Assembly: GCA_039028615.1 (NCBI GenBank)
Contig: JBCCHT010000039.1
Location: forward strand, 1-64,000
Origin: Myxococcota bacterium
Lineage (GTDB): Bacteria; Myxococcota_A; Polyangia; Nannocystales; Nannocystaceae
Length of the DNA stretch: 64,000 nt
Reading direction: 5' to 3'
In this document: positions 38,952-60,898 of the stretch, piece after piece
Position numbering within the stretch: the stretch's first letter is position 1
How the letters are laid out: every line of letters begins with the position of its first letter
Position numbers and translations under genes: made by a program
Notes under the pieces: model-generated
Seen by the model: only the letters and a program-made list of their open reading frames with translations
What the model was told of the DNA's origin: nothing
The model's database searches: none

Positions 38952-39930
38952 ACCGACTTCCACCGTCGGCCACGGTAACACCCCATCGCGCGCACGACCA
39001 TGGTGCAGACATCGACGACGATGCGAGTCACAGTGTCGAGTTGGTCCTCGCTCGAACTCGACCTACCGCGATGTGGGACCTTCGTGGGCGTCGCGCCCGC
39101 GAACCATGAGTCGATTGCGAAGCAGTCGATTCGACCTACACCGGGACCGTCGATGAACTCGGCCGCCGAACAACCAGGCGTGTCGTGGGTCGAGTTTCCA
39201 CGAGGCACTACGTGGCCGGATCGTTGGGGATGCTCGAGTGTCCGACTCGCACTCCCACCTCGCCCGCGTTGTCGGTGCAGTCTTCGATTTATGCCCATGA
39301 ACGACGTTCAGCTCACCTTTGCGCGCTCATGATGTCGTACTCGCTGCGCTGGACTTCGTCGCCGTTTTCGTCGACGACGTGCTGCGGATCTCCGTCCGAC
39401 GAGACCGTCGGTATGCAGGCTCTGCACATCGGCCGCGACGCTCTCTCCGATTTCGATCGCACGCATGTTCGGTCGTCGTACTCAGATACGCATGCCAGGT
39501 TCTCGCCCTTTGTCCTACTGCGGCTGCAAGATCCTGACACCAAGCATCGGCGCCCTCGATGCCACCCATCCCGCCCACGCTCGACGCTAGTGACAACGAA
39601 CGACGGCGGTGGAAAGAGGATCGAGGATACGCAACCCCATCGTCGGTCACCGCTCGGTGTCAGTTTCGCGCACGCGCGATCACGGCGGCGGTTCGGGGGG
39701 TGAACGCTCGTCCCGTTGTGGCACTCGCCACCACCCGCCGCCGGGTCCGACAACCCCTCTGAATGTTTGAATACTTGATCGTATCCGCCCCCCGGGCGAT
39801 CCTAACGTTCAGGCCTCGGCCAAGGAGGGCCAAAGCCCCACGGAAGCGGCGCAAAGGGGCAGGAAACGGTCAATGTTCAGCGTTGAGCGCAAGGGTGCCC
39901 GGTGCCCAGGGTTCGACCACGGAGTCGGTG

Positions 39931-41883
39931 GTGGCTGAGCAGACGTGGGTGCAGCGGCTACGCGGGGGGCAGGGCGTCGGCATGCTCTTGCTGCTGTCGT
40001 TGCTGTTCGTGGCCGCGTTGCACTCGACTTCGATTCCCGACGCGATCGACGCGTCGCTGCAGTCGGCCTACTACCGCGCGGGCATTCCCTCGAGCACCGA
40101 GCAGCGCGTGCTGCTGGTCGAGGCCGACGACGAGACGACCCAACACTGGGGCTCGCCGCCGTGGACGGAGCAACGACGCCGAGCCCTGCTCGACCGCATC
40201 GCCCAGGGTCAGCCCGCGGCGCTGGTGGTCGTGGATGGTGCACGGATGTTCCCGGTCCGTTCGGACACCGCCGACGCCCCCCCGCCCGACGATGGCCTCC
40301 CGTCGTCGCTGGTGTACGTGGAGCTGTCCACCCACATCGACCCCGGCTCGAACCAGGTCGACTCGCTGAGCGACGGGGATGTACGACTCCGTAGGTTGGA
40401 CCCCGTGCTCGAGGTGCTCGAGCACGACGAGCCCCGCGCCGAGCAGCTGCCGATCCACTATCTATGGCCGCGCTCGCGACTGCCGACCATGTCGTTCAAG
40501 CGCATCGAGCAGGGCGACGTGCCGCCGTCGATCTTCGAGGACAAGGTCGTGGTCGTGGGCCTGACCAGCCCCGATCATCGCGACGCGCTGGCGACCCCGA
40601 TCGGCGCCCTGACCTCGCCCGAGATCATCAGCCACACCTTCGCCATGGTCGCCGACGGCCGCCGCTTCCACGAGCCGAGCTGGTTGGTACGCGTGGGCGG
40701 CCTGCTGCTCGTGCTCGCTGCGACCATGCTCGCCATGCGGGGCACCACGCCATCGCAGGCGGTGGTGCGCGTGGCCGCGCTGCTCGCCGTGCTGCTGGCG
40801 ATCGACCTGGTGCTCTTCTCCCGCGGGCTGATGCGCTGGGGCGTGAGCACCGAGCTCATCGTGGTGGTCTCGATCCTGATGGGGCACTGGTATCGCAGCC
40901 AGCAGGACAGCGCGGCGCTGGTGCAGACGGTCTCCAGCAAGATCTCCGAGCAGCTCGAGTCCGAGACCGTCGGCGAGCCCGCCCCCGAGGATGGCTTCTG
41001 GCAGGACATCGCCGAGACGGCCAGCGCCTACCTCGAGCTCGACTTCACCGGGGCGCTCATCGAGCTCCCCGAGGGCCAGTGGCACCTGCAGACGCGGGCC
41101 TTCATGAACATGGACGAGGAGGGCATCGCCGAGCGGCGCCGCGACGTCCGGCGTCCGCCCTACCGCGCCGCGTTCCTCACCCACAAGCCGCACCGCTGCG
41201 AGCGGCCCTTCATGGCCGACGAGTCTCGCTACACCCTGGCCGTGCCGCTGGCCTTCGAGGGTCGACTCTACGGCATGTGGATGGTCGGCCTCGACAAACA
41301 GACCGAGCTCGAGCGCTCCGACAAGACCTTGCTCGAGCAGCTCGGCCACGAGCTGGGCCGCAGCATCGCGGCCGCCCGGCGGGGCAAGCCCTTCGGCGAG
41401 TCCCTGCCGCTCAGCTCCGGCGACATGGCTCACCGCTTCGCGCAGCTCATCCACGGGGTCGAGGCCCTCGGCCAGGACAAGCGCCGCGTCGTCGACACCT
41501 TCGACGCCCTGCCCATGGGGCTGTTGGTCGCGAACATCTGGGGCCACATCGTGCAGAGCAACGCCGCGCTGCGCTCCGAGCTGGCCGACCAGTTCCCCGA
41601 CGGCATCCCCAACAACGACCTGCGTGCCGTGCTGTCGCGCGTCACGGGCACCTCGCTCGAGGGGGTGCACGGGATCATGCGGACGGTGATCCGCACGGGC
41701 AATACCGTCCGGCTGCGCTCGGCCGAGGCCAACGCGCGCGACTCGAGCTTCCTGCTCATGCCCATGCAGACGGAGGGCTCGACCGGTGCCCATGCGTCCA
41801 GCGAGCCCGCGACGCACCTGGTGCTGATGATCGTGCCCGAAGACATGGGCCCCACGGTGGACATGCTCGTCCGAATCGCCTGA
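39931..41883 (+). CDS. CHASE2-domain membrane sensor with GAF and PAS-like domains, no recognisable output domain
   Basis: LLVEADDET..WG.PPW, FEDKVVVVG and TPIG CHASE2 motifs; 3 TMs; LAVPLAFEGRLYG GAF; FDALPMGLLV PAS; start uncertain. Confidence 0.8.
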   Translation: MAEQTWVQRLRGGQGVGMLLLLSLLFVAALHSTSIPDAIDASLQSAYYRAGIPSSTEQRVLLVEADDETTQHWGSPPWTEQRRRALLDRIAQGQPAALVVVDGARMFPVRSDTADAPPPDDGLPSSLVYVELSTHIDPGSNQVDSLSDGDVRLRRLDPVLEVLEHDEPRAEQLPIHYLWPRSRLPTMSFKRIEQGDVPPSIFEDKVVVVGLTSPDHRDALATPIGALTSPEIISHTFAMVADGRRFHEPSWLVRVGGLLLVLAATMLAMRGTTPSQAVVRVAALLAVLLAIDLVLFSRGLMRWGVSTELIVVVSILMGHWYRSQQDSAALVQTVSSKISEQLESETVGEPAPEDGFWQDIAETASAYLELDFTGALIELPEGQWHLQTRAFMNMDEEGIAERRRDVRRPPYRAAFLTHKPHRCERPFMADESRYTLAVPLAFEGRLYGMWMVGLDKQTELERSDKTLLEQLGHELGRSIAAARRGKPFGESLPLSSGDMAHRFAQLIHGVEALGQDKRRVVDTFDALPMGLLVANIWGHIVQSNAALRSELADQFPDGIPNNDLRAVLSRVTGTSLEGVHGIMRTVIRTGNTVRLRSAEANARDSSFLLMPMQTEGSTGAHASSEPATHLVLMIVPEDMGPTVDMLVRIA

Positions 41884-41899
41884 CCTCGCCCCGATCGAC

Positions 41900-44800
41900 A
41901 TGGAATCGAGCCCCGAGCTGCTGTTCGAGATACCGCGCGGGCTCGAGCAATCGATCCTCCTGGCGGTGCTGATCGGCTTTTTGGTCACGCTCTTTTTGGT
42001 CGAGAGCTTCGGCTGGGTGTTCGTGGGCGTGGTCGTGCCCGGCTACCTCGCCTCGGTGCTCGTCATCCAGCCGCCCGCCGCCCTGGCCGTGGTGCTCGAC
42101 GCGAGCCTGACCTACATCGTGGCCAAGATGCTCGAGATGATACTGGGTCGAGGCGGGGCCAGTAGCGAGTTCTTCGGGCGAGAACGGTTCTTCTTGTTGG
42201 TGCTCGTCTCGGTCTTCGTGCGCCAGCATACCCAGACGTGGTTGTGGCCCTTGGCGCTGGAGACGGTCGACCCCATGGTCGACATCCCCGTCGACTTCGC
42301 CCGCAGCTTCAGCAGCATCGGCATCGTGCTGGTCCCGCTGATGGCCAACATCATGTGGAAGCTCGATCTGCGGCGCGGCATGTGGCACCTGGCGCTGACC
42401 AGCCTGGTGACCTACGCCCTGCTCGCGTGGTGGCTGCTGCCCGAGACGACCCTTTCGTATAGCGCCCTCGAGCTGAGCTACGAGGACACCGCCATCGACT
42501 TTCTGGGCAACGCCAAGGCCTACATCATCTTCCTGACCACGGCCTATGTGGCCTCGCAGCTGAACCTCTACTACGGCTGGGACTTCAACGGGATCTTGGT
42601 GCCCGCCCTGCTGGGCCTGCTGTGGTTTCATCCCGCCAAGCTCGCGACCACCTTCGGCGAGGCGATGGTCGTGTACATGGTCACCGTTCGCATGCCGCGG
42701 GCGCCGATCTTGCGCTCGATCAACCTCGAGGGTCCGCGTCGGCTCGCGCTGGTATTCACCACCAGCGTCACCCTCAAGTGGCTCATCGGCTGGATCCTCG
42801 GCGACAGCCTGCCCACCCTGAAGATCACCGACGCCTATGGCTTCGGGTACCTGCTGCCCTCCCTGCTCGTCATCAAGATGATGCAGCGCAAGTCGATGCG
42901 AGCGGTGCTGCTGCCCACCGCGGTGGCCTCGTGCATGTGCTTCGTCATCGGCAACCTGATCGGCTTCGCCCTGAGCTTTGCCGACCCCGCGCCCAAGGGC
43001 CCCGACGAAGCCGCCCAGCTGCAGACCAACGACAGCACGCGGCTATTGAGCAGCGCGGCGGGAGTGGGCGCGCTGGGGCACCTGCATGCGCTCGAGCGCG
43101 CGACGACCTTCGCCGACCACGGGCAGAACGTGGCCTACCGCCGGGTGTGGGAGACCGCCTCGCGGTGGCTCGACACGCCCACGCCTCACAACCAGGCGGC
43201 GGTCCTCGAAGCCCTGGGGCCCACCAAGCTCGAGCTGGTCGCGGTGGGGGAGCACGAGGGGCGGCCCGCCTACGCGCTGGTCGAGCGCGACCTGGGGCCG
43301 CGGCAGGGCTGGGACACCGCCTTGCTCGTGCCCGGAGCGCCCGGCCCGGTGATCGCGGTGCCCCGACCCGTGGCCGAGGCGCCCATCGCCGAGTCCGCCT
43401 CGGTGCTGTGTCGGCGCATGCGCTGCCGGGCCCTGCTGATCGCGGGCGTCGACGTCGAGCGCGACCCGATGATGCGCATGAGCACGTCGTCCTTCGACAT
43501 CGCTCGCGGCGCGCTGCGGGACACGCCCATGATGATCCTGCGCTCGGACGACGCCATGGGCCGCAAGCCCATCCTGCACATCGGCGCCGAGCTTCCGTCG
43601 TCCGTCGACCTGCGTCGCGCCTGGCCGACCGAGGTGGGCCTCGAGTGGTCCGATCCCCCCGTCGAGTTCGCCGCGCGTCCTCCCGCGCAGGGCGGCACGC
43701 TGCGGATCCACCCCTTGGACATCGAGGCGATGCTGGCCTCCAGCTCGCCGTCGCTGGTCAATGCCTCGACCCCGCCGCCGTGGGTCATGCTTCGCGACCG
43801 CGATCCGCTGCTGCGCACGCTCCCGCCCGGGCAGACCCCGTCCAAGCGAGAGGCTCGATACCTCGAGCTGGAAGTGGTGGCCCCGTTGGTGGAGATCGCC
43901 GCGGGTCGTCGGCCGACCTCGGAGCTCGAGCGGCTGTCGTGGGCGGCCGAGCGCCTGGGCATGGAGCTGTGGCGGATCGATGACTGCGGCGCGGGTCGAC
44001 CCTGTCTCGGGCTCATCGATCCGCTGGGCGACGATGGCATGGGCTGGGGCTCGCTGCTGGTGCGCTGGGGGGAGACCCGGGAGATCGGCATCGAGCTGCT
44101 GCGCCCGGGCATGGCCTTCGGTACGCAACAGCTGGGGCTCGAGCTGTGGCAGCAGGCCAATGCCCGCGCCATCTATGTCGGCCCCAGCAACGCGCACGAG
44201 GGGCAGAACCCGCTGGCCCTGGGCAACATCCAGGCCCCGCTGATGCCCTTTCATCAGGCGCTCGATCGCTCGCTCGGCGACGACGTCACGCGACCGCTCT
44301 TGGTGCAGGTGCTGGGCTTCGGCGTCGAGCGGCAGCTCGATACGCCCATGGTCGTGGGCCTCGGCCGGCCCGTGCTCGACGAGGGCCAACAGCCGCTCAA
44401 GCTGCGCTGGCTGCTCGAGCAGGGGCCTCTGCAATGGGTCGAGCGCCCGCTGTTCAGCGACGGCTCCCCGCTGCTGCACGCGCTGTCCGGCCTGGGTAGC
44501 CCCGCGGTGGAGTACTCGCTGGAGCTGGGCCAGGCCGATGTCGCCTTGCTGTGGTTTTCGCCGCAGGTGCGTGGCCGCTACGTTCGCCGGGCCCAGGGCG
44601 GAGAGCAGCGACGCTCGCGAGCGCTGGGGCTCGAGTACCAAGACAACTCCGAGCTGGAGCGACTGGCTCCCGAAGGGATCACCAACGAGACCACGGCCCC
44701 CCCCGCCCCGATGATCGAGGAGATCGACGAGCTGCTGCGCCTGGCCACCAGCTATCGGCTCTCCCACGACATCCACGCGCTGCGGCGGATCCAAAACCGC

Positions 44801-45070
44801 GCCCGGGGCCTGACCACCGAAGAGGTGACCGTGCGCGTGTCGGTGGGCGGCGGGACGATCAGCAAGCTGCCCATGGTGTGGGTCGAGGCCACCGGTCCGC
44901 AGTGGGGCCTGCGCGGCATGGTGCTGCTGGAGTCGGCCGTCGACCGTCGCACCACCCTCGTCGCCACCGAGGCCGACCTTCGCGAGCAGATCGGCCTGGC
45001 GCTGTTCCGCCGTGACGGGATCGTCGTCGTACGCAGCGGGCCGCCGTCGGGAGGTCCCGATGCTCCGTGA
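41900..45070 (+). CDS. Poly-gamma-glutamate biosynthesis PgsC/CapC-like protein (tandem CapC domains) with a ~700-aa soluble extension
   Basis: GVVVPGYLA, FFGRERF and SIGIVLVPLMAN match CapC motifs; second copy GILVPALLG, EGPRR, GFGYLLPSLL. Confidence 0.8.
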   Translation: MESSPELLFEIPRGLEQSILLAVLIGFLVTLFLVESFGWVFVGVVVPGYLASVLVIQPPAALAVVLDASLTYIVAKMLEMILGRGGASSEFFGRERFFLLVLVSVFVRQHTQTWLWPLALETVDPMVDIPVDFARSFSSIGIVLVPLMANIMWKLDLRRGMWHLALTSLVTYALLAWWLLPETTLSYSALELSYEDTAIDFLGNAKAYIIFLTTAYVASQLNLYYGWDFNGILVPALLGLLWFHPAKLATTFGEAMVVYMVTVRMPRAPILRSINLEGPRRLALVFTTSVTLKWLIGWILGDSLPTLKITDAYGFGYLLPSLLVIKMMQRKSMRAVLLPTAVASCMCFVIGNLIGFALSFADPAPKGPDEAAQLQTNDSTRLLSSAAGVGALGHLHALERATTFADHGQNVAYRRVWETASRWLDTPTPHNQAAVLEALGPTKLELVAVGEHEGRPAYALVERDLGPRQGWDTALLVPGAPGPVIAVPRPVAEAPIAESASVLCRRMRCRALLIAGVDVERDPMMRMSTSSFDIARGALRDTPMMILRSDDAMGRKPILHIGAELPSSVDLRRAWPTEVGLEWSDPPVEFAARPPAQGGTLRIHPLDIEAMLASSSPSLVNASTPPPWVMLRDRDPLLRTLPPGQTPSKREARYLELEVVAPLVEIAAGRRPTSELERLSWAAERLGMELWRIDDCGAGRPCLGLIDPLGDDGMGWGSLLVRWGETREIGIELLRPGMAFGTQQLGLELWQQANARAIYVGPSNAHEGQNPLALGNIQAPLMPFHQALDRSLGDDVTRPLLVQVLGFGVERQLDTPMVVGLGRPVLDEGQQPLKLRWLLEQGPLQWVERPLFSDGSPLLHALSGLGSPAVEYSLELGQADVALLWFSPQVRGRYVRRAQGGEQRRSRALGLEYQDNSELERLAPEGITNETTAPPAPMIEEIDELLRLATSYRLSHDIHALRRIQNRARGLTTEEVTVRVSVGGGTISKLPMVWVEATGPQWGLRGMVLLESAVDRRTTLVATEADLREQIGLALFRRDGIVVVRSGPPSGGPDAP

Positions 45071-47678
45071 CGTGCTCTCGGCCGTGGTCCTGGTCGGCAC
45101 GCTGTGGGCCCTGTGGCAGCTGGGCCACGTTCGCGACGCGCTGTCGCAAGCCACCGACACCCCCATGCAGCGCAAGATCCAGGGGGCGGACCGCGTGGTG
45201 CACTACCGCTTCGACCAGGACGGCGGCCCCTCGTTTCACCTCGATGGCGACGAGGTCGAGCTGCGCCTGGTCACCCACTTGTTCCTCGAGCCCGGCCGGC
45301 TCTACTCCGCGTTCGCGACCTACGACTATGGCCTGCGCCTGCGCATCGACGACCCCGAGGGCAACGTGCTGTGGGAGCGCGACATCTACACCTCCACCCG
45401 CCAGAGCAAGGACGAGTGGTCCGACGGGCTGTGGATGCAGGAGAACGCCTTCGGGCTCGACCCGGGCATGGAGATCACCGACGACCGGGTGCACCTCATC
45501 ACCCTGCCGCGCGACATCCCCTGGGGCTCCACCTTCCACGCCCGGCTCGAGGCGCCCGCGGCCGAGTACGGGGTCATCCGGGCCTACGAGCGCTCGCTCG
45601 ACTCGTCGCTGGGCGTGCTGCTGAGCTATTTCGGGCCCGCGCCCGATCAGGAGTCGCGGCTCATCGGGCGCCTGACCTACCTGCCCTGGGATGCACTCTC
45701 GACCGAGCAACGGCTCACCCGGCTGCGCTTGCGCTGGAATCGAATGTCGGCGCTGGGCGAGCTGGGCACGGACTACGAAGTCGAGACCGTCTTCTACACC
45801 GGCTTTCGCATGCCGCCGCCGCAGCTACCTCCGCGCCCACCGACCGAGCTGGTCGACGACCGAGCCACCGCGTTCACGGCCTGGGGACCAGGTGAGCTGC
45901 GCCTGGCGATCGAGGCCGACTGCCCGGAGCACCCCGGCCTCGGTCTCGACCGCCCGGCGATCGAGCTTCTGCACCTCGACGCGATGGGCGTGGTGGATGG
46001 TCGGCACGTCGATCCCTGCAAGGGACAGAGCCACGAGGTGTGGCTACCCCCGGGGCCGCACACCATGCACGTGCGAGGCAAGGCCCTGCCGCCGACCACC
46101 ATCGAAGCCTGGTACGACGACCACACCCAAGATCCGCCCGAGCTGCCCGGGCTCGAGCTGGGGCACCCCTTCCGCCCCACCATCACCCGCTCGCCGCGGG
46201 TCCGCCTGCACACGGGGTCGGTGCCCGCCAGCTACGCCCTGGTCGAGCCCGAGGACCTCGAGTCGGCCATGATTCGCCTGCGAGCGCGGCTGCCCGTGCC
46301 TTCGCGCTCGGGGCCCGAGGCACAGCGCCCCGCCACCATCGGCTACACCTTCATCGATCGACACGGTGAGCCGCTCGAGCGCGGCGAGTGGCGGGTCGAG
46401 CCCTCGCCCGAGCTCGCCGAGTACGAGTCGGTCGTCAGCGCCTCGGATGCCGAGCGCACCTGGTGGGTCAGCCCGCCCAAGACTACCCGCTTCATCGCCC
46501 CCGAAGGCACGCGGCGGCTCGAGCTCGATGCACAGGGGGACGCTATTGTGTCCGTGTATGCGTACTGGTCGGGCGCCACCGAAAAGCCCCGCCCCCACCC
46601 GCCCTACGACGAGGCGATGCTGGTCAACACGCAGTGGCGACGCGTGCCCATCGACTACCAGTGGTGGTTTCCGCTGTCGCCCCACAACGTGCACATCCTC
46701 CAGCGCCACAACCAGACGGTGGACCTGCACGGGCCGATTCGGCTCGAGCTCGAGGGGGCCTTCGAACGCGAGTCGCCTCGCCTCGCCCGCAAGCCCAAGG
46801 CCTCGGACATCCAAGAGCCCGGCGGCGGCACCTCGCCCTGGGTCAGCCTGTCGCCCTATACGCCCAACGAGCGGCGCACCGTGCTGCTGAAGACCTCGGC
46901 CGACTCGCCGTGGGCTCGGTATGCACGCTGGCGACCGGGCGCCGCGACCCTGAGCGTCGACGACGACTGGGGTGCGGCCGCCGTGTACCTGGTCGAAGGC
47001 GATCCCGAGCTCGCGCTGGGCCAGGTGCTCACCGCGACCGTCGACGGCGTCCCGGTCGAACACACCATCTTGAGCACCCGCGGGGTCTGGAAGCTGCCCG
47101 GTCTGGGTCGCGGCGAGCACGACGTCGAGCTCGGACCCCTGCCTCCTGGTGTGCGCGTGTACCTCGACCGACCGGGGCTCGATCCACGCCGCGGCAGCAC
47201 CGACGTCTTCCGCGTGATCACCCTGTATCGGCTCGAGGACGACCCCATGGGCCTGAAGGTCGACAAGACGGGCGACGACGGCGAGTACATCAACGCGCTG
47301 ATGATCCGCTGCGACGATCGAGAGCCGAGCCAGCTGAGCGTGCTGCTCGACAACGGCTCGCCGCGACGGCGCCGCGGCGTGCCCATCCAGCGGGTCACCC
47401 GAGCCGTGCGCGAGCGGGAGCTGCCCGCCCGCGGCCCGTCGACCGAGCTGGTGTTCTTCGACCGCCCGCAAGCGCGCTGCGAGGCGCTGGGGCGGGTGCC
47501 CATTCCGCTCGGCGCCGACCTGGCCCTCGGCCCTCATCGCGTCACGCTGCGCATGAAGGACGGCCCCGGGGTCTGGGTTCGGTTCTTCCGACGGGGGGTC
47601 GACGACTCACAGGACCTGCGCGCATTCGAGTGGACCGAACGACTACTCGACCTCGGCGACACCGCGGGGGCACCATGA
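45060..47678 (+). CDS. Hypothetical membrane-anchored multi-beta-sandwich protein (operon member)
   Basis: MLRDVLSAVVLVGTLWALWQL N-terminal TM; overlaps both neighbours; 872 aa. Confidence 0.8.
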   Translation: MLRDVLSAVVLVGTLWALWQLGHVRDALSQATDTPMQRKIQGADRVVHYRFDQDGGPSFHLDGDEVELRLVTHLFLEPGRLYSAFATYDYGLRLRIDDPEGNVLWERDIYTSTRQSKDEWSDGLWMQENAFGLDPGMEITDDRVHLITLPRDIPWGSTFHARLEAPAAEYGVIRAYERSLDSSLGVLLSYFGPAPDQESRLIGRLTYLPWDALSTEQRLTRLRLRWNRMSALGELGTDYEVETVFYTGFRMPPPQLPPRPPTELVDDRATAFTAWGPGELRLAIEADCPEHPGLGLDRPAIELLHLDAMGVVDGRHVDPCKGQSHEVWLPPGPHTMHVRGKALPPTTIEAWYDDHTQDPPELPGLELGHPFRPTITRSPRVRLHTGSVPASYALVEPEDLESAMIRLRARLPVPSRSGPEAQRPATIGYTFIDRHGEPLERGEWRVEPSPELAEYESVVSASDAERTWWVSPPKTTRFIAPEGTRRLELDAQGDAIVSVYAYWSGATEKPRPHPPYDEAMLVNTQWRRVPIDYQWWFPLSPHNVHILQRHNQTVDLHGPIRLELEGAFERESPRLARKPKASDIQEPGGGTSPWVSLSPYTPNERRTVLLKTSADSPWARYARWRPGAATLSVDDDWGAAAVYLVEGDPELALGQVLTATVDGVPVEHTILSTRGVWKLPGLGRGEHDVELGPLPPGVRVYLDRPGLDPRRGSTDVFRVITLYRLEDDPMGLKVDKTGDDGEYINALMIRCDDREPSQLSVLLDNGSPRRRRGVPIQRVTRAVRERELPARGPSTELVFFDRPQARCEALGRVPIPLGADLALGPHRVTLRMKDGPGVWVRFFRRGVDDSQDLRAFEWTERLLDLGDTAGAP

Positions 47679-48697
47679 ACGAGATGCCGCGCGCGCGAAA
47701 CCTGCTGTGGGTCACCACCACGGCGAGCTGCTTGCTCGCGGGGGGTCCCGACGAGGCTTCGCAGCGCCAGCGCGGCTCCTCGCACGCCACCGATCCCGGC
47801 GAGCGCCTGGGTCCCGAGCGAGACATGAGCGCGCGACAGGCCCGGGCCGCGCTGTGGCCCAACCTGCGAGGCCAGGGCTACGAGGCCGCGTCGACCGAGC
47901 ACGTCGAGGCCACCCAGCAGCTGCTCGCCGCGACCATGACCTACGCCACCGGGAGCACCGACGGCCAGGCGCTGCCCCAGCTCGCGCTCGCGGCCGGGCT
48001 GCTGCTGCAGCGCTGGAAGATCGACGAGCACCACTACCTGGCGATCCTCGAGGGCCCCGACGGCTCCGGTCGCACGGGGGCCTTCCTGCTGCGCCTGGGC
48101 CCCCCGCCCGCCGATGGGCGAGAACGACTGCTGCAAGCGCCCCACGCCTTCTTCGACATGGGTACGGGCCGGGTGACGCTCGACGTGCTGCTCGCTCGCC
48201 CCGCCGACTTCCGGGGGCTAGCCACCAACACGCTGCAGCGCTACGTGCAGCCCGACGGCACCAAGAAAAAGTCCGCCCGCAACCCGGCCGACGTCTGCCA
48301 CAACCACCGGCATCCCTTCGTGGCCGCCACCGTGGGCATGGCCGAGGCGAGTGATGCCCTCGAGGTCATTCAGCTGCACGGGTTCGGGGACGACCGCACC
48401 ATCCCCGAGCTGCCCGAGGCCTGGGCCATCGTCAGCGCGGGCTCGCTCGACCCCGGCTGGCCGCGCGTCACCGCGGTCGCCACCGCGCTCGAGCGAGACT
48501 TCGGCGTCACCATTGCCCGCTACCCCGAGGACGTCGAGCTGCTCGGGGGCACCACCAACGTCATCGGACAGCGCGTGCGCTCCATCCCGGACGCGACCTT
48601 CCTGCACCTCGAGCTGTCCTCGAACTTCCGCACCAAGCTCCGCCAAAAGCCCGAGTGGTCACGACGGTTCGCCGCCGCGCTGGTCTCTGCTCCGTGA
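47675..48697 (+). CDS. Putative secreted Zn-dependent hydrolase resembling poly-gamma-glutamate hydrolase / N-formylglutamate amidohydrolase fold
   Basis: ATGA overlap; LLQAPHAFFDMGT, IQLHGF, LLGGTTNVIG and FLHLELSSNFR occur in PghP-like order. Confidence 0.6.
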   Translation: MNEMPRARNLLWVTTTASCLLAGGPDEASQRQRGSSHATDPGERLGPERDMSARQARAALWPNLRGQGYEAASTEHVEATQQLLAATMTYATGSTDGQALPQLALAAGLLLQRWKIDEHHYLAILEGPDGSGRTGAFLLRLGPPPADGRERLLQAPHAFFDMGTGRVTLDVLLARPADFRGLATNTLQRYVQPDGTKKKSARNPADVCHNHRHPFVAATVGMAEASDALEVIQLHGFGDDRTIPELPEAWAIVSAGSLDPGWPRVTAVATALERDFGVTIARYPEDVELLGGTTNVIGQRVRSIPDATFLHLELSSNFRTKLRQKPEWSRRFAAALVSAP

Positions 48698-51600
48698 TGG
48701 CCCGGTGGCTGCTGACCCTGCTGCTGTTGTCCATGGTGGGGCTGTGCTCGCGCCCCGCCGCCGCCGTTCCCCCTCCCCTGGCCACCGATCGGGCGGAGTG
48801 GACCTGGAGCCCCACACCCGTGCACTACGGGGTCGATCCCGCCGACGTACGAGCGAGCGCGCCCTTCGTGCCCCGAGGAACACCCCGCGTCGAGGGCAAG
48901 GTCGTCATCGAGCCCGGTCGCGCGGTGGTGGTGTGGATGAGCGCCCTGTCCACGGTTCGCGTGCGAAAGACCCGGCCGGAGTCGAGGGGCACGCTGAGCT
49001 TCTCGCGGGTCGAGCCCAGCGCGGGCCTGGCCACGGCGCGGGTCGATGAAGACGGGATCGCGGTCGCCCCCGGGACGTGGCTGCTTCGGCACCCGGTCGG
49101 CTGGGGCGCGCCGTGGCTCGTGCAGAGCGATCGACGAGTGGAGATCGTGGTGGAGCAGGCCGTCGCTCGTCGGGGGCAGCGGATCTGGGAGCACGTGCAC
49201 GACAACGTCTTGCAGTGGGTGCAGCTGCGCGGCTCCATGCCCCACCTGCCTTCGACGGCGGGCTCCGAGCGCTATGTCCGACGGCGCCTGGCCGATCGCG
49301 AGGTCGCGCGGGAGATCCAGGACCTGTCGGGGGGCAACGCCGAGGTGCGCCAGGCCCTGATCGCATGGCGCATGATTCGAGCCGCCGATGAACTCGACCT
49401 GCTGCGCCCCCTGGGCCAGGTCGAGGAGATCGTGCCCAAGGCCGCGCCGACGGTGGAGCTGCCCCACCTCCGCGACGACCCCACCTCCGCCTCGGCCGAC
49501 CTGCACTTCGTTCGCGTGGAGCCGGAGCAGCCGTGGCACTTCGGGGTGCGTGGTCCGGGGGTGCTGCGGCTGGGCCTGCGAGCGTTGCTGCCCCCCGATG
49601 GCCCGCGCTCGCGACCGCTGTCCGCGGTGGTGAAGACCCGAGGCGACGACGGTCGCGAGCACGTGGTGAGGCGCCTGGACGTGCTCGCATCGGTCGCGCG
49701 AGTCCGTGACGTCGGCGATCCACAGGCGCCCATCCCCACGCTGGTCGACGCCCGCACCGAAGCCGGAGAGCTCGCGTCGCTGGAGCACACGCTGACGGTG
49801 CCCCTGCGGCCGGGCAAGCACGAATACTGGGTGGAAATCGCGGGCAGCCCGGTGGCCCTGCGCGCCCGGCTGGGCCGCGTGGTTCCGCAGGCGCACGGTC
49901 GAGACTCGACACAATGGCGGGCCCGCACCCGTCGTCGCGCCCTCGCCCGACTCGACGATCAGCGCACGGTGGCCGCCCACGTGACGCGCCTTTTGTTGGC
50001 CGATCCCTGGGTCGCGCCGTGGCGCCTGCCGCTGCCCCTGCGCAAGACCCTGGGCCGCGATGCGCCGCGCGTCCGCGTGTTCATGGAGCTTCACTCGCTG
50101 CGGCGGCGAGACATCGATGCCGTCAGCCGCATGGCGCGAGGTCGCCAGGTGAATGCATGGCTGCCCTTGGCCCCCGAGGCCGACGCCCTCGACATCGAGC
50201 TGCGCATGCAGATGTTCGAGCTGCGCATGGCCGCCGGGCGACACCTGCGAGCGGTGGAGATGCTGCGCAGCCACGCGGGGGCCCTCAACGGCGACGAGCT
50301 GCCCGCCCTGGTCGACGCGGTGCAGGAGCCCGGACGCGCGTGGCCGCTGATGGGTGCGCTCGATGCCGTGGCCGCCCGCGCCCCGCTGGCCAGCCGACTG
50401 CGGGCCGCCCATGCGCGCCTGTGGTCGTGGACGAGCTGGGCGCGGCTGCACCCCACCACCGACGTTCCCGCGTGGCGCTGGGTCGAGCCACCGACCGCCC
50501 GCTCGCCGACCGCCGACTCGCCGCCCGGGGCCCTGTGGTCCATGCCCCTGCGGACCGCGGTGAAGCTCGTCGCCCCCGCGCACCCCTTCGAGCGCGATCG
50601 GACCCCCGTGCTGCGGATCTCCGTGCACGCCGACGCCCCCGTGAAAGGTCCGCTGAAGCTTCAGGTCGGCGACGACGTATTCACCACGCCCATGCTCGGC
50701 CTCTCGGAGGTGTTCGAGGTCGCGGTGCCCGTGGGGACTCACTTGGTCTGGCTCGATGCCCCCGAAGGCGTGCACGCGCTGAGCAACTTGCACCCTGCCC
50801 CCGGACAGACGCACGCCAAAGGGCCGAGCCCGCTGCGGACCACGATGTGGCCGGCCCACCGCGACGGTCGGGCGACCCAGTTCGACCTCGGTGCGCTGCC
50901 CCGCGACACGCTGGTCCAGGTGGGACTGCGGGTCATCGATCCTCCCTCGTCGCCGGCCGAGCCCGTCACCGCGTGGGTCTGCTTCGACGACGGCCAGCGG
51001 CGTCGGGTCGTCGTCGCGCCCGGGTCTCGCCCCACCGAGCTCATCACCATGCCGGGCGCGCCGACCGTGTCCGATCGCGTGCACGTGGTGGTACCGGCCT
51101 CGCGTCGCGCGACGCGGGTGTGGGTCGAATCCGAGACGCCGCTGGCGGTGGCGGCCAAGGTGCGGCGCTGGGATCCGCCACCCGCCCAGGCCTTCGCAGA
51201 GACCACCACCGTGGCCACCCGAGGCCCGGGCGCTCGACTCACGCCGCAAACACGCCACGCCGCCACGAACCGACGCCGCGTCCGACGAGGTGAGCCCTAC
51301 GAGCGACTGCGGCAATCGACGCGGCGCATCGCAGCCCAGCCCAAGTCCATTCGCGCCCGGGTGGAGCATGCCCATCGCCTGCTCGACGTCGGCGATCGCC
51401 AGCGCGCCCAGTGGGAGCTGCTCGACGTGCTCGAGGCCAACCCGCTGCGCCCCGACGATCCACGCGTGCCCCTGGTGCAGGCCCTTCAGGCGCGCATCGA
51501 TGCGTTCTTGACCGACGACTACATTCGCCAGCCGAACACCCCGTATCCGCAGCCGTTGCTGCTACGGCCGGCCATGGCTGCGCTGGGACCCGACCACCCC

Positions 51601-53757
51601 TCGCGCTCGCAGGTCGCCGAGGCCACCGCCGCCGCGCACGAGGGACGGCTGCGCGAGGCGTTCGAGGGTCACGCCGACGCCTATGCGCACAGCGAGGCCC
51701 TGGGCCCGGGCTATGCCGCCGCGCTCGCCTACGCCGATGCACTGTGGGGAACGCCGGGTCAGCCCCTCGATCCCTCGTGGGTCCCCCTGCGCTCGCTGGC
51801 CTACGGCGTCACCAGCCGAGTGCGCGCACAGATCGACACGCCGCGCCTCCGTCGGCTGCACAACGAGCTGGCCACCCCCGGTCAGTGGCAGCCCCTCCAG
51901 CTCGCCGAGCGAAGCGCGGGCACCCAGGATCGAGGGCGTCGCGCCAACACCCGAGCGCTCACCGACACCGAGCGGCTGTGGTGGGCCCTGCTCGCTCCGC
52001 CCTGGGCCGAAGGCGAGGGGCAGCTGCTGCGCTCGGGGGCGCGGAGCATCATCAAGCTCGAGCTGCCCGACCCCCACGCGATCGAGCTGGAGGTGTTCTG
52101 CGACGATCGCCGCAGCGATGCGGACGAGCTGTCGGTCGAGCTGCGCACTGAAGACTCGACCACGCCCATGCAGGACGACACGCTGGTGCTGCCTCGCCGC
52201 CGCGCACGACGACATCGGCTCCCGGCTCGTCGCGGCTCGGTGCGCATCGAGTTGCGGCTCCCGCCGGGCGCTCCCGAGCGACGCTGTGCGGTGCGCTGGC
52301 AGCTGGTGCGCTCGGCCACCGAGGCCCTCGTCTCCGAGCGACCCCTGCGGTGGCTGCGAGCCGAGCCGGGGCGACCGGTGGAGATGATCGTGCTGGGCCC
52401 CACCGCCTTGCGCCTGAACCTCGAGCCGCGCCGTGAAGACACGTCCACCACCGCCACCGTGCAGATCGCCGACCTGGCGGGCAAGGACCCGCAATTCGTG
52501 TCGCTCCCCGTCGAGGCGGTCGGCGACGGCGGCTCGGACCCCGTCACTCTGCTCATACCGCAGGCGGGGGCGCAGCGGCTGACGATCAACACCGACGACG
52601 AAGGCGTGCTCGCCCGGGTGGCCGTGCGTCGCTCGAGCGACGGCAGCGACGAGGCCGTCGCCGAGCAGATCGCCGCCCTCGCTCCCACCACCCACGGCTC
52701 GGACACCGCCGCCGTTTCGGCCGCCCTCGACCTCGACCCACCGGGTCCCTACTGGCCCTCGGGCGCCGATGCACGCCCCACCGAGCGCATCGCCGACGCT
52801 CCCTCCGACGCCACCGGGCGGCTCGGCTCCTTCGAGGCCGAGCTCGGCTTCAGCCGCACCGACATCGCCGAGGCCGACGACCCCCGCCCCCGCAGTCGAT
52901 TGCGCGGCAGCGTGCTGTGGCGGCGCGAGCTGTACCCCGATCACATCTGGCTCAAGCTGGCCACCCACGGTCAGGGGCGCGACGGGGCCGGGGGCGCGGG
53001 AGGAGCGGCCGCCACCGCCTACGCCCAGCTCGGCTCGCGGCGCCTGCGGGGATGGGCCTCGGTCGCCTCGTGGGCGGAGCGCTACGGCGACATCCCGGCG
53101 TCGAGCGTCCGCGCCACGCTGCATCTCGATCGACCGCTGGGCATCACCCCGTCGCTCGCCGTCATCCCCTACTTCCGCAGCTCGTATCGCCACCAATCCC
53201 TCGACGACGCCCAGTTCGACATCGACATCGACCCCTCGCACGCCCAGGTGTTCTCGGCCTACGTCGAAGACCACCCGCTGGTGCTCACCCCCGGGGCGCG
53301 GCTGCGCTGGAATCCGTATCGCGACCTGCAGGTCTCGGGTGAGGTCAGCGCCACGCCCAACTCCGTGCCCGACTCGCTCGACCACGTCGACGGCGCGGTG
53401 AACCTCCAGGGCATCATCGACACCCGGCTGCCCCTGCTGGTGCGCTACGGCGGCGCCTACCGGGCCTCGCTGCGCTTCGAGGACGACGACCGCGTCCAGA
53501 CCTTCGTTCGCCACAGCCCCAGCCTCAATGCGGGCGTGACCTGGATCTTCCGCTCTGTCGGTCGCCTGAACCTCGATCTCCGCGATACCGTCTACCTGTC
53601 GCGCCCCTTTGCCCCCCGCAATGGTGTGCACGTGGTGCTGTCCTTCGAGCTGACCTTGGACCGAGGCGTCCGCGATACCTCCCCCATGGAGCTGCTGTTC
53701 CGCCCCGCCTACCGCTACCGATGGTGGCAAGCCCCGCCGCGGAGGTCGGCGCGGTGA
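48697..53757 (+). CDS. Large secreted protein with beta-sandwich and helical/TPR-like regions and probable C-terminal outer-membrane beta-barrel
   Basis: Signal peptide MARWLLTLLLLSMVGL...AAA; TGATG overlap; alternating amphipathic strands in the last ~300 aa. Confidence 0.7.
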   Translation: MARWLLTLLLLSMVGLCSRPAAAVPPPLATDRAEWTWSPTPVHYGVDPADVRASAPFVPRGTPRVEGKVVIEPGRAVVVWMSALSTVRVRKTRPESRGTLSFSRVEPSAGLATARVDEDGIAVAPGTWLLRHPVGWGAPWLVQSDRRVEIVVEQAVARRGQRIWEHVHDNVLQWVQLRGSMPHLPSTAGSERYVRRRLADREVAREIQDLSGGNAEVRQALIAWRMIRAADELDLLRPLGQVEEIVPKAAPTVELPHLRDDPTSASADLHFVRVEPEQPWHFGVRGPGVLRLGLRALLPPDGPRSRPLSAVVKTRGDDGREHVVRRLDVLASVARVRDVGDPQAPIPTLVDARTEAGELASLEHTLTVPLRPGKHEYWVEIAGSPVALRARLGRVVPQAHGRDSTQWRARTRRRALARLDDQRTVAAHVTRLLLADPWVAPWRLPLPLRKTLGRDAPRVRVFMELHSLRRRDIDAVSRMARGRQVNAWLPLAPEADALDIELRMQMFELRMAAGRHLRAVEMLRSHAGALNGDELPALVDAVQEPGRAWPLMGALDAVAARAPLASRLRAAHARLWSWTSWARLHPTTDVPAWRWVEPPTARSPTADSPPGALWSMPLRTAVKLVAPAHPFERDRTPVLRISVHADAPVKGPLKLQVGDDVFTTPMLGLSEVFEVAVPVGTHLVWLDAPEGVHALSNLHPAPGQTHAKGPSPLRTTMWPAHRDGRATQFDLGALPRDTLVQVGLRVIDPPSSPAEPVTAWVCFDDGQRRRVVVAPGSRPTELITMPGAPTVSDRVHVVVPASRRATRVWVESETPLAVAAKVRRWDPPPAQAFAETTTVATRGPGARLTPQTRHAATNRRRVRRGEPYERLRQSTRRIAAQPKSIRARVEHAHRLLDVGDRQRAQWELLDVLEANPLRPDDPRVPLVQALQARIDAFLTDDYIRQPNTPYPQPLLLRPAMAALGPDHPSRSQVAEATAAAHEGRLREAFEGHADAYAHSEALGPGYAAALAYADALWGTPGQPLDPSWVPLRSLAYGVTSRVRAQIDTPRLRRLHNELATPGQWQPLQLAERSAGTQDRGRRANTRALTDTERLWWALLAPPWAEGEGQLLRSGARSIIKLELPDPHAIELEVFCDDRRSDADELSVELRTEDSTTPMQDDTLVLPRRRARRHRLPARRGSVRIELRLPPGAPERRCAVRWQLVRSATEALVSERPLRWLRAEPGRPVEMIVLGPTALRLNLEPRREDTSTTATVQIADLAGKDPQFVSLPVEAVGDGGSDPVTLLIPQAGAQRLTINTDDEGVLARVAVRRSSDGSDEAVAEQIAALAPTTHGSDTAAVSAALDLDPPGPYWPSGADARPTERIADAPSDATGRLGSFEAELGFSRTDIAEADDPRPRSRLRGSVLWRRELYPDHIWLKLATHGQGRDGAGGAGGAAATAYAQLGSRRLRGWASVASWAERYGDIPASSVRATLHLDRPLGITPSLAVIPYFRSSYRHQSLDDAQFDIDIDPSHAQVFSAYVEDHPLVLTPGARLRWNPYRDLQVSGEVSATPNSVPDSLDHVDGAVNLQGIIDTRLPLLVRYGGAYRASLRFEDDDRVQTFVRHSPSLNAGVTWIFRSVGRLNLDLRDTVYLSRPFAPRNGVHVVLSFELTLDRGVRDTSPMELLFRPAYRYRWWQAPPRRSAR

Positions 53758-56700
53758 AGATCGGCCCGCTGAAGCTCGGCGTGCCCTCGCTGGCGCGGGT
53801 GCGGCACCACGACGATCCGAGCTCGCCCGCCTACGTGGGACGAGACAGCCATCGCCGCGCGGTCATCGACCTCATCGCGCGCCACATGTCTCCGCTGCAG
53901 GCCAAGGTGCGGCGTCGGGTGCTGGACGAGCTGTCGCGGCGCATCGTCGACCGCGAGGGCGAGATCGATCTGTTCTTCCAGCTCGACGAATCGGAGCGCC
54001 TGGCCGCGACCCTGCTGCACGCCCGCCATGTGATCCCCGTGCTCGAGGCCGAAGAGGAGCGCTTCGTGGTCGAGTTTCGCCGGCTGGTGCGAGCCCACGA
54101 CGCCCTCGATTCCCAGGCCGAGCAGCGGCGCTTCTTGGCCGATCACCTGCAACGTACCGCGTCGAGCCGCGGGCAGGCCCGGGCCGACCGTGCCGCCCTG
54201 CGTCGCAACCTCAACCTCGAGGCGCTCAAGGAACGGCACGATGGCGATCGGCATCGGGTGTTGGTGCAGGTCGAGGTCTCGCTCGACTTCATGGCCGGGG
54301 CCCTGGTCACGCTGGGCCCCGACGCGCCCGCCCCGACTGAATCCAAGGCCTCGGCGCTGGCGCTGTTGGGTGACTCCGACGTGCTCGAGTTCCTGGTGAC
54401 CTACGCCCGGACCCAAGCGCGCTGGCAGACCCGCTGGGCCGCCGCCCGAGCGCTGGAGGCCTACGTCTGCACGGGCATCACGCTCACGGACGCGCAGATC
54501 GAGGGCCTGCGCGGGCGCATCGCCGACAAGAACGAGCACCCGTGGGTGGTCTCGGTGTTGGTGAGCACGCTGTGGACGACCCGGCCGCAGCTCGCTCGTA
54601 CGATCACCGAGGAGCGCCTACGCACGCCTCTGGAGCACCCGCTGGACTTTCTGGTACGGCGGCTGCTGCTCGACCAGACCCATCGCGACGGGCCCTGGGC
54701 GCTGGGCGTCATCGAGGCCCTGCTGCACCGAGGAGACCCCGCCCAGCACGTACGCCTGGGCATCAACCGGGTACTGCGGCGTCTGCTCGACGAGCACCCC
54801 GAGGCGCTCGATCTCATCGTCTCGCAAGTCGGCATCTTGCCCGCGAGCGCGCCCGAGCCCGAGCCCGCCCCGCGGCGCAAGAGGAAGAAGGCCAAAGCCG
54901 AGCCCGCGCCCGCGCCGAAGCTCGAGCTGCCGTCGGAGACCGTCAGCACCGAGGACGTCGCATCCTCCAACGACGCCAATTACGACTCCGCCGATCGCAA
55001 GAAGAAGCAACGCCGCAAGCGACGGCGAAAGAAGAAGGACAACAAAGAAAAGAAGAAACGGAAGAAGACGGAGAAGCCCGCTCCGCCACAACAGCCCGCG
55101 CAGGACGAGCCGACCGAGGCCGTCGAGGAGCCCGCGAAGGACGAGCCGACGCCGGCCGAGCCCGAGGCACCGACCGAAGACTCCGGGCCCAGCGAGCATG
55201 CCGTCGTGCCCGACGTGGGCGATGCCGCGGCACGGGTTCGAGCCGTGGCGGGGCGAGCATTGGTCGTCACCCTGGGCGAGCGCCTCGCCTGCCCCGAAGC
55301 GGGCCCGCGGGGCAAACAGAGCCTCGCGTACCTCCACACCTGGCTACGGCGTGAGCGCGACGAGCTACCCCTGCTGGTCACCTTCGAGGCCCTCCGTCGC
55401 GTGCTCGAAGACATCCACGAGGACCACGACGGTCGCGAGGCGCTACGGATCCTCGCCCCCGTGCTCGCCGAGCTGTCCCGTGACGGCGCTGCGTCGCCCG
55501 CCATCCACGAAGACGCTGCCGCCACCCTCGAGACCCTCGATCGCGTGCTCAGCCCACCGCGCCGGGCCCTGGTCGCCCGGCTGCGCTCCGCCTTGTCGCA
55601 GACCTCGGTGCCCGGCTCGTGCCGCGTGCCCCTGACCGAGGACAACGAGCGCGCCGACGTGGGCCGAGCCCTGGCCGAGATCACCCGCGATGACTGGGGC
55701 GTCTCTGCGTCGCTGTCACCTCGCCGGGCACGCCTGCGCCGTGGCGACCGCTTCACCACCAAGCTGTGGCGAGTGCTGCACGAGATCCGCAACCCCGCGC
55801 CCAACAAGCGCCAGGGCTTTCGCCACACCGTCGGCCGCGTGCTCACGGGCGACCTGCGAGCCCACAGCGGACAGCTGCACGAGGTCACCCCCACCGTGGT
55901 CCCCGGCGAGCGCGTGCACATCCGGGGCGAGGGCGGCTGGGGTCGACACGTGCCCTCGGCCGACGACGTGACCACCGTGCCCCTGCTTCGGCCGCGCCCG
56001 GTGGAGCTTTACAGCAGCTTCGGCGTCACTCGACTGCGCGCCACCGGATCGCTCGCCAAGCGCCTGTGGTCGCGCGCGCGGCTGACCTTCCGCTACGCCG
56101 AGGTGGCCGCCCAGCGCAGCACCAGCCTCGACTCCGACGAGCCCGAGGAGTCGCGCCGCTACCTGACGATGCTGCGCGATCGCTACGGCATCGAGGTGGA
56201 GATCGAGCCCGCGCCCCCCTGCGGCGAGCACCCGCGGGCCCTGCCCGAGCGCATCACCGCCCTGCTGCCCGGCGAACCGGAGCCCCCCGCCGACGCGTCG
56301 TCCAAGCCGTCGACGAAGGTCGCCGCGCTCGCGCTGGCCCCCGACGCGCTCACCCCCGGCGTGCTGCCCCGCCTCGACGAGTGGCTCGACACCCACGTCC
56401 ACTACTTCCTGTCGATGCAGGCCAACCAACAGGCCTCGCTCGCCGCGTTCTTCCTCGGGGCCTTCGCGCTGTTCTTCGGCGACTCGTTCCGCCGCCGCCA
56501 CTCCATCGATCGCGCCCGCAAGAAGATCCCCCTGTGCATCGGCGGCTGGGGCACCCGCGGCAAGTCGGGCACCGAGCGGATCAAGGCGGGCCTGTTCCAC
56601 GGCCTCGGCTACCAGGTCTTCTCCAAGACGACCGGCTGCGAGGCGATGATGATCCACTCCGTACCCGAGGGCCCTCCCGCCGAGGTCTTCGTGTTCCGCC

Positions 56701-58643
56701 CCTACGGCAAGGCCACCATCTGGGAGCAGCGCAACCTGCTGGAGCTCGGCGCCGCCCTCGAGGCCGACGTGTTCCTGTGGGAGTGCATGGCGCTCAACCC
56801 CAAGTATGTCGAGATCATCCAGCACAAGTGGATGCGCGACGACCTGTCCACGCTGACCAACGCCTATCCCGATCACGAGGACATCCAGGGCCCGGCCGGC
56901 ATGGACGTGGCCAACACCATCTCGCGCTTCATCCCCGATGACGGGATCATCCTGACCAGCGAGATCAACTTCCTGCCCCTGTTCCGCGAGGTCTGCCGCG
57001 AGCGAGACAGCGAGCTGGTGGCCATCGGGCCTCACGAGGGCGACCTCATCGCACCCGAGCTGCTCGACCTGTTCCCCTACCAGGAGCACCCCCGCAACAT
57101 CGCGCTGGTGGCTCAGATGGCGGAGCAGCTCGACGTCGACCACGACCTGGCCATCGTCACCATGGCCCAGCACGTGGTCGCCGACCTCGGCGTGCTCAAG
57201 AGCTATCCGCCCGTGCGGGTCTGCGGGCGCGTGCTCAAGTTCATCAACGGCTGCTCCGCCAACGAGCGCGCCGGGTTCTTGGGCAACTGGGAGCGCACGG
57301 GCTGCGCTGCGCTGGCCGAGAGCGAAGACCCCGAGCAGCTGGTGATCACCGTGGTCAACAACCGGGACGACCGCATCAGCCGCAGCGAGGTCTTCGGTCG
57401 CATCCTGGTCAACGACTGCGTGGTCGATCGTCACGTGCTCATCGGCACCAACCTACGCGGGCTGCTCTCGTACCTGCGCGGGAGCATGGCGATCTTCCTG
57501 CAAAACATTCAGCTCGTGCGTGCGGCCGACCTCGAGGACCCCGAGGGACGGGAGCGGGCGCTCGGGCGCCTGGCGGCGTTGATGCAGCGGCTGCGGATCT
57601 CTCCGCTGTCTGCCAATGCCCTGCTCGCCCGCCTCCGCACCTATGCAGCCGGTTGCGGCCTCGAGCTGCGCGACCCCGAGCCCGCCCGCAAGGTCCTCGA
57701 GCAAGCCCTGGCCAGCGACGGCGGCCTCGAGCTGGCCAAGCTCCGCAAGGACTTCGAGCAAGACGCCAAGCTCCGCGCCGCCCTCGATGCCGGCCTGAGC
57801 GAGCCCACCGAGGCCTCCACCCAGACGCCGCCAGAGGTCCTGATCCCCTGCGAACGCAAGGAACTCGAGGTGCACTTCGCCCGCCAGCTCGCGCGCGCGG
57901 TGATCCATGCTCGCCTGCGACGACAGCTCGAGGCCCTGTTCGACAACAAGTCGACGTCCGAGCTGGGGGCCTACGAGGATCGGGTCCGCGAGACCTATCG
58001 GGTGATGTTCGATGACATGTTGGTGGTCGTCGAAGATCCCAAGACCAAAGGTGACGCAATCGTGCAAGCGTGTGCACGGTGTGTACCGCCCGGGACCCAT
58101 GTACGCATCATGGGTACCCAGAACATCAAGGGTACCGGTCTCGACTTCGTGTATCGATGGTTGGCCGTCGATGCCGTGGTGGCGGAGCTGAAGATCCTGC
58201 AAGGGCCGGAAGACGACGGGCGACTCGGGGCGCTCGAACGACTGCAGGCCTTTGCCGATCACGGGGTGATGGATCTCGGCCTCCTCCATCGATACCTGCG
58301 CGAGAACGAGCCTCGGGGGGCCGCCGAGCGAGCGCCCTTCGATCGCCTCAAATCCAAGGTAGAGCCCGCCTACAAGAAGAAACGGGCTCCTTTCGAAGCG
58401 GCGACGGGCCCCGATGCACCGGGCGGCAAGAAGAAGAAGACGTGGGTCGAGTCGGCCGCGAGCTGGATCGAGGGATGGCTCGATTTCCTCGACGGTGCCC
58501 GTCGGTTCCACGGATCGGCCGCGATCATGAAGGACCTGGTGCACGGCCGTGTCTCCCACCCCCGCGCCGCCGTGCTCATGCGCGAAATCTACGCGAGAGA
58601 AAAGGGAGGTTGGTTGCTGGCACGCTTTTCCAACAAGGGGTGA
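53754..58643 (+). CDS. Giant PgsB/CapB-like ATP-dependent amide ligase (Mur-ligase superfamily) with a ~900-aa N-terminal extension
   Basis: GTRGKS P-loop (56550), [35 protein letters not shown] and [10 protein letters not shown] match CapB; GTGA overlap. Confidence 0.88.
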
Positions 58644-58719
58644 GTGTAGGACGTCCCAATACGAAATCAGACCATTTCATGATCCTCGAAGGGGCACTTC
58701 GACCTTATCGTTGCCCCGT

Positions 58720-60843: not shown

Positions 60844-60898
60844 AGCCGGGCTCCGCTTCGAACGGCACCGGTCGACGGTATTGCAGTACTGTCGACCG

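Follow-up and report, generated by a model that had tools for sequence, protein, structure and literature searches.

A six-gene operon with enlarged CapB- and CapC-like proteins as a candidate two-membrane secretion system for a gamma-glutamyl polyamide

Poly-gamma-glutamate (PGA) is synthesized in Bacillus by the PgsBCA(E)/CapBCA(D,E) system, of which CapB and CapC are described as the synthase (PMC10090944). Few Gram-negative producers are known according to a recent preprint (bioRxiv 2025.11.11.687785), and no description of how the polymer passes an outer membrane was found in the searchable literature. Ordinary Gram-negative capB-capC clusters, some with a third gene, are present in Fusobacterium, Cloacimonadota and many Myxococcota and combine CapB (~400 aa) and CapC with two membranes, without a linked CapA. 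Synthase-dependent exopolysaccharide secretion (Bcs, Pel, Pga, Alg) joins an inner-membrane synthase to an anchored beta-sandwich protein, a periplasmic hydrolase and a scaffold-fused outer-membrane barrel; cellulose secretion is reported to need three such parts, namely the anchored beta-sandwich protein in the periplasm, the barrel with its periplasmic scaffold, and a hydrolase that removes stalled chains (PMC11379886). Here we describe an operon of six co-directional genes, g1 to g6, spanning 39931-58643 (+) of a 64,000-nucleotide window (positions 1 to 64,000 of contig JBCCHT010000039.1, assembly GCA_039028615.1) from a Myxococcota bacterium of the family Nannocystaceae. We contend that this operon is real and conserved, and that it places catalytic parts of known kinds within a new and apparently undescribed architecture for export across two membranes; a full-text literature search, judged by listings and the starts of abstracts and with subscription journals outside its coverage, found no description of it. 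Because oversized relatives of the synthase are joined to a hydrolase-like enzyme and a predicted outer-membrane pore, a polymer is likely made and threaded across both membranes, and we regard synthase-dependent export of a gamma-glutamyl polyamide, on the plan of cellulose, Pel or poly-N-acetylglucosamine secretion, as the probable function. Gene order, domain identities, residue conservation and co-occurrence were established directly; the product, the direction of transport and the protein contacts are proposals.

The ligase g6 (53754-58643, +; 1629 aa; GTGA overlap with g5) comprises a HEAT-like helical N-terminal part (many relatives have Pfam HEAT_2 matches), a lysine-rich linker, an orphan conserved domain, a membrane anchor (residues 894-912) and a CapB-type ligase core with a long helical insertion (residues 915-1242; anchor and core at 56433-57479, +, placed by hydropathy, TIGR04012, motif alignment and tree). 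TIGR04012 (PgsB) is the sole catalytic NCBIfam model matching g6 (200.8-204.8 bits, E 3e-59, model positions 18-330 of 380); no FolC or cyanophycin synthetase model of NCBIfam is listed for it at E 0.1, and it is not among the seven Mur_ligase_M matches of the genome. The core is ~30% identical to CapB, and the motifs of reference CapB/PgsB all align: the anchor, then the P-loop G.RGKS, KTTG, ECMA, DH.D..GP, AN and N.R.DR. A quick maximum likelihood tree was built from 55 rows, namely 37 cores of the long type represented by g6, 11 ordinary CapB/PgsB and 7 Mur ligases, FolC and cyanophycin synthetase being left aside. The long-type cores form one clade (Shimodaira-Hasegawa-like approximate likelihood ratio support 98), which joins the ordinary CapB/PgsB rows apart from the Mur ligases with support 99. 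The grouping of the ligase with CapB rather than with the Mur ligases of its own genome, as the preliminary description of this DNA had proposed from its letters, is upheld by the profile matches and the tree; of the two profiles named there, TIGR04012 matches g6 below its cut-off and Caps_synth_CapC matches g2. Elsewhere, the same genome encodes two additional MurE-like ligases (459 and 409 aa; loci L082 and L083; G000:C12 and C53) that are close relatives of each other.

The orphan domain (residues ~601-862; 55554-56339, +) has 12 invariant positions in a 68-row alignment, including Trp, Arg, Glu and His; a PDB search gave no match and Pfam no consistent one. A strong hydrophobic segment stands just before the core in 182 of 229 long ligases and within the first 40 residues in none of them, and a weaker proline-rich hydrophobic stretch lies ~30 residues ahead of this segment. 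In three loci the ligase gene is split exactly at the hydrophobic stretch, the split-off N-terminal part having no anchor. The C-terminus of Bacillus subtilis PgsB is given as cytoplasmic (PMC7490850). From the sequence we infer that g6 may form a membrane hairpin with both its N-terminal part and its ligase in the cytoplasm. A Lys/Glu/Pro-rich insertion of ~130 residues (54864-55250, +) makes g6 longer than most of its relatives (1300-1570 aa).

The second synthase component, g2 (41900-45070, +; 1056 aa; 16-base-pair gap after g1), consists of two fused CapC/PgsC membrane units (residues ~13-360) followed by a periplasmic part of ~690 residues. It matches Pfam Caps_synth_CapC (PF14102) in two stretches (123.7 bits, E 7e-36) and TIGR04011 with 53.5 bits, under the cut-off of 96.45; the CapC halves align to each other (95.7% HH probability) and to reference CapC. 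This tandem arrangement suggests that CapC of Bacillus may also work as a dimer. The periplasmic part aligns with g4, the predicted hydrolase of the operon (hhalign 98.9%, E 3e-17), and two copies of the g4 fold can be seen in homologues. In these domains the second His and the catalytic Glu are each present in 0 of 42 rows (many gapped there) and the first His in 5 of 42. Since the second His and the catalytic Glu are lost, the domains are, on sequence, likely binding rather than cutting modules.

The genes from g2 to g6 travel together, a pattern that speaks for their belonging to one system. Among 301 Myxococcota genomes (the source genome included; kin are not independent), the ligase core was matched in 99, of which 35 have the long type (one frameshifted) and 64 the ordinary type only; some genomes hold both. 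The g5 barrel profile matches 34 of the 35 long-ligase genomes and 1 of the 266 others, and because 29 of those 34 contributed to the profile, the informative figures are the five independent long-type matches and the 1/266. All of g2-g6 lie within 20 kb in 20 of 32 fetched long-type places (of 36), the other 12 involving contig ends, rearrangement or g3/g4 below threshold. Similarly, in the 34 of 80 metagenome loci (GC 36-73%) that have 9.5 kb upstream, g2 was found in 33, g5 in 33, g3 in 32 and g4 in 31, with the order kept in 31-33 of 34. Fusions join g3 to g4 in four loci of one family and g4 to g5 in one locus. At ordinary capB loci of Myxococcota, g3-g5 and the periplasmic part of g2 were found in none of the eight fetched. 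The closest named relative is Paraliomyxa miuraensis, with the six genes in the same order and a ligase core 80% identical. The other three sampled genomes of the source's own family are without the system, so its spread is patchy. Named relatives outside Myxococcota include Zhongshania, Marinobacter, Alkalimarinus, Pseudidiomarina, Marinobacterium, Ca. Thiodiazotropha and Roseomonas, and the supposition that similar loci exist in other diderms proved correct; the ligase core is matched at E 1e-60 or better by 1874 protein clusters (748-2380 aa). One family has a second operon or a second barrel gene (G212:C107 and C72; G122:C32; G137:C32).

Structure prediction covered g4 and the C-terminal 686 residues of g5, and it bears out both the hydrolase and the outer-membrane barrel that had been guessed at. 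According to its model, g4 (47675-48697, +; 340 aa; ATGA overlap with g3) is an exported, predicted zinc hydrolase with the PghP/N-formylglutamate amidohydrolase (FGase) fold, similar to zinc carboxypeptidases; against 48,161 structure chains, its top four matches are glutamyl-amide hydrolases or their structural-genomics relative. His157, Asp161 and His235 are the likely metal ligands and Glu313 the predicted catalytic residue; all 67 homologues retain Glu313 and Arg319, which correspond in the alignment to the Glu/Arg pair that is invariant in 11 PF05908 members, with the spacing of Glu165/Arg171 in PghL. Arg171 of PghL is described as anchoring the PGA carboxylate (PMC6506827). With the PghP/PghL gamma-PGA hydrolases (PF05908, MEROPS M86) g4 thus shares the fold, the His/acid/His ligands, the catalytic Glu and the Arg at +6; those enzymes are phage-derived, whereas g4 is exported and encoded in the operon. 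In intact long-type genomes where g4 is missing from the locus, it was always found elsewhere. The source genome has a single PF05908 match, located beyond the window and ~12 kb downstream of g6 (locus L200, G000:C39:70703-72121, +). The protein encoded there looks exported and carries the canonical set of PghP motifs; as such a match is present in only 2 of 35 long-ligase genomes and in none of the fetched flanks, its nearness may be chance.

The outer-membrane candidate g5 (48697-53757, +; 1686 aa; TGATG overlap with g4) carries a signal peptide, beta-sandwich repeats, a short helical part resembling tetratricopeptide repeats (TPR_20, E 0.04) and a C-terminal barrel with a conserved tail. 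The model predicts 14 strands at residues 1378-1652 (52828-53652, +), fused to ~1350 residues of periplasmic scaffold. The preliminary description had envisaged a TPR/barrel scaffold, of which the predicted barrel stands and the TPR part for the most part does not, since the scaffold is mostly beta-sandwich. Its repeated modules are common to g3 (45060-47678, +; 872 aa; 11-base-pair overlap with g2), a periplasmic protein with an N-terminal anchor whose homologues also have hydrophobic N-termini; g3 and g5 align with hhalign at 94.5%, and segment pairs at up to 96.7%. Pfam and PDB sequence searches gave no match for g3, which is likely a guide or scaffold.

The first gene, g1 (39931-41883, +; 650 aa; GTG start), encodes CHASE2 (Pfam 3e-13), two membrane segments, GAF and a PAS-like end; PAS is matched in 2 of 14 homologues. 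It had been called a sensor, and the sensor domains CHASE2 and GAF are indeed there; a kinase module is not, the domain search having found no kinase or cyclase output, and at some loci no such gene was found. Of the 26 Myxococcota loci with the CapC part, 22 have a g1 homologue upstream of g2 (16, plus 6 more at 98.3%). Longer relatives end in weak, degenerate HisKA/HATPase matches in which the usual His box was not seen, while g1 and two relatives stop after PAS. It is likely a regulator acting through protein contact. Pel and Alg, too, have a catalytically dead sensor-type regulator.

Compared with Bacillus PgsBCA(E), the operon shares the anchored CapB-type ligase and the CapC unit, but the ligase has an N-terminal part of ~890 aa, a helical insertion and a clade of its own, CapC is doubled and fused to dead hydrolases, and a sensor, scaffold, hydrolase and barrel are added. 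The absence of CapA, CapD and CapE noted earlier applies to the operon itself, in which PGA_cap was not found among the six genes (CapE, 47 aa, was not searched for); it does not extend to all relatives. A CapA-family gene of 700-820 aa adjoins the operon in 11 loci, a minority made up of seven Myxococcota genomes and 4 of 49 metagenome loci with 2.5 kb downstream, and in 10 of 10 tested linked proteins PGA_cap scores above its cut-off. This gene is an accessory to the system, and its recurrent linkage adds to the case for PGA by association. The long linked type was not found in the source genome, whose one PGA_cap gene is unlinked (contig C45) and matches the long type over the catalytic domain alone. 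Compared with Bcs, Pel, Pga and Alg, an amide ligase takes the place of the glycosyltransferase (Pfam and NCBIfam give no glycosyltransferase family in the six genes); no sequence homology was found, and the likeness is one of working only.

A Gram-negative operon for synthesis and export of a PGA-type polymer, as the preliminary description had it, is thus supported by the CapB grouping, the co-conservation and the models of g4 and the barrel. In the mechanism that we propose, the cytoplasmic g6 core would lengthen the chain by glutamate at the expense of ATP, and the tandem CapC of g2 would pair with the g6 anchor to form the inner-membrane passage. The emerging chain would be bound, uncut, by the two dead hydrolase domains of g2, guided through the periplasm by the repeats of g3 and g5, and released via the g5 barrel. 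Stalled or escaped chains might be cut by g4, as BcsZ does with cellulose, and g1 would gate the activity by contact, not by phosphotransfer.

Several observations weigh against export of a gamma-glutamyl chain. The g6 score of 200.8 is below the curated TIGR04012 cut-off (222.7), and the quick tree, which calls for a long-branch warning, gives 2.9 changes per column on the branch to the long-type clade; given these two points, the substrate of g6 may have shifted. The ~890-residue N-terminal part, with its highly conserved orphan domain, has no Bacillus counterpart. For g4, FGase-type enzymes score equally with the model (Z within 1), its profile reaches only 49.9% against PF05908 members (16% identity to PghP/PghL), and Pfam PF05908 is not matched by g4 and by only 1 of 27 homologues (E 0.0049). 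The second metal ligand is Asp at His+4, not Glu at His+5, and the His77/Thr79/Ser80 motif of PghL was not recognised, that region being unaligned and holding an invariant Asn..Arg motif instead. Genes resembling g4 are also unlinked in some long-ligase genomes and present in six genomes without a long ligase (strong matches in G024, G030, G060, G119, G129 and G227, five of which carry ordinary capB elsewhere; 19 more have weak ones). The g5 barrel has 14 predicted strands, compared with 16 reported for BcsC (PMC11379886), and its net charge is not consistently positive among homologues.

Some of these points would fit a different amide product, either a heteropolymer or gamma-glutamyl chains placed on an acceptor (lipid, protein or wall peptide) picked by the orphan domain of g6, the conjugate being exported or displayed. 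Gamma-glutamate is nevertheless indicated by CapC, by the PghP-like pair of Glu and Arg and, at some loci, by CapA, and the neighbour clusters seen in at least three loci include no recurrent gene for a glycosyltransferase, a carrier protein or another acceptor; we consider this alternative unlikely. Less probable still is retention of the polymer in the periplasm or cell, for storage or osmotic buffering, with the barrel and g4 serving turnover or uptake of oligomers. The g5 barrel fold is in fact closest to the uptake porins CymA and OmpG, a further point against export, and a study of Ca. Thiodiazotropha files CapB/CapC under storage compounds, by annotation alone (PMC11168628). That closeness may, however, only reflect strand number: among the top ten fold matches only the BcsC alignments also reach the C-terminal tail (model residue 676), the barrel is fused to its long periplasmic scaffold as export barrels are, and no inner-membrane importer recurs among the neighbour clusters. 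That the ligase/CapC pair and the g3-g5 envelope proteins merely share an operon while serving separate functions is very improbable, for although the gene arrangement is altered at a few loci (L042, L044, L067) and g4 is sometimes distant, the co-occurrence given above, the g4-like domains inside g2 itself and the fusions across the block all oppose it.

Returning to export of a gamma-glutamyl polyamide, we lean, by a modest degree, towards a broader view in which the operon encodes a secretion system that spans the envelope and is dedicated to a non-ribosomal polyamide, the counterpart, for amino-acid polymers, of cellulose, Pel and poly-N-acetylglucosamine secretion. Such a system would have a barrel family of its own, guides made of dead hydrolase domains and a new cytoplasmic domain, and PGA would be an overlooked but widespread polymer on the surface or in the matrix of myxobacteria, marine gammaproteobacteria and clam symbionts. 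For Pacific clam symbionts, an enrichment in CapB/CapC is reported from annotation alone (PMC11168628), and the CapB counted may be of either type. The CapsuleFinder PGA model is described as requiring CapB and CapC, treating CapA/E as accessory and forbidding the PGA-degrading PgsS, and as scoring capB+capC loci as PGA capsules across phyla (PMC5542703). By Pfam and NCBIfam rather than by CapsuleFinder profiles, CapB- and CapC-like genes are present here, four genes apart in order, and g4 is of another hydrolase family; the supplementary list of CapsuleFinder may include such loci. With so many ligase-core clusters, the polymer could be a frequent matrix component that has simply not been sought. 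The operon offers candidate parts for every step of the crossing of the outer membrane by PGA, and since it is also present in cultured marine genera (Marinobacter, Zhongshania, Pseudidiomarina), the export question is directly testable. A native two-membrane exporter would also be useful for PGA production.

All five gene junctions were found again just as reported earlier, and g1-g6 are each single-copy in the source genome (12.27 Mb, 94 contigs). The GC content at third codon positions is 0.88-0.94 across the operon and only 0.68 in the frame extended upstream of g1; this, together with the Val-Ala-Glu start and ribosome-binding-like site shared with the P. miuraensis homologue, supports the GTG start at 39931. 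Upstream of g1, two short overlapping frames (39313-39753, -) look like the remnant of a frameshifted gene, presumably akin to a myxobacterial secreted-protein family, with no second copy in the genome. After g6 there is a terminator-like hairpin (58686-58702, +), a weak indication given by a consensus match only, with 0.2 expected in shuffles. Further downstream, a 375-aa stand-alone N-terminal part of GyrB/ParE (60881-62008, +; HATPase_c and DNA_gyraseB, without Toprim and C-terminal domains) is encoded. Between the two, directly after g6, lies a gene for a MYXO-CTERM surface protein with cysteine-rich acidic repeats (58720-60843, +), which is also adjacent in Paraliomyxa.

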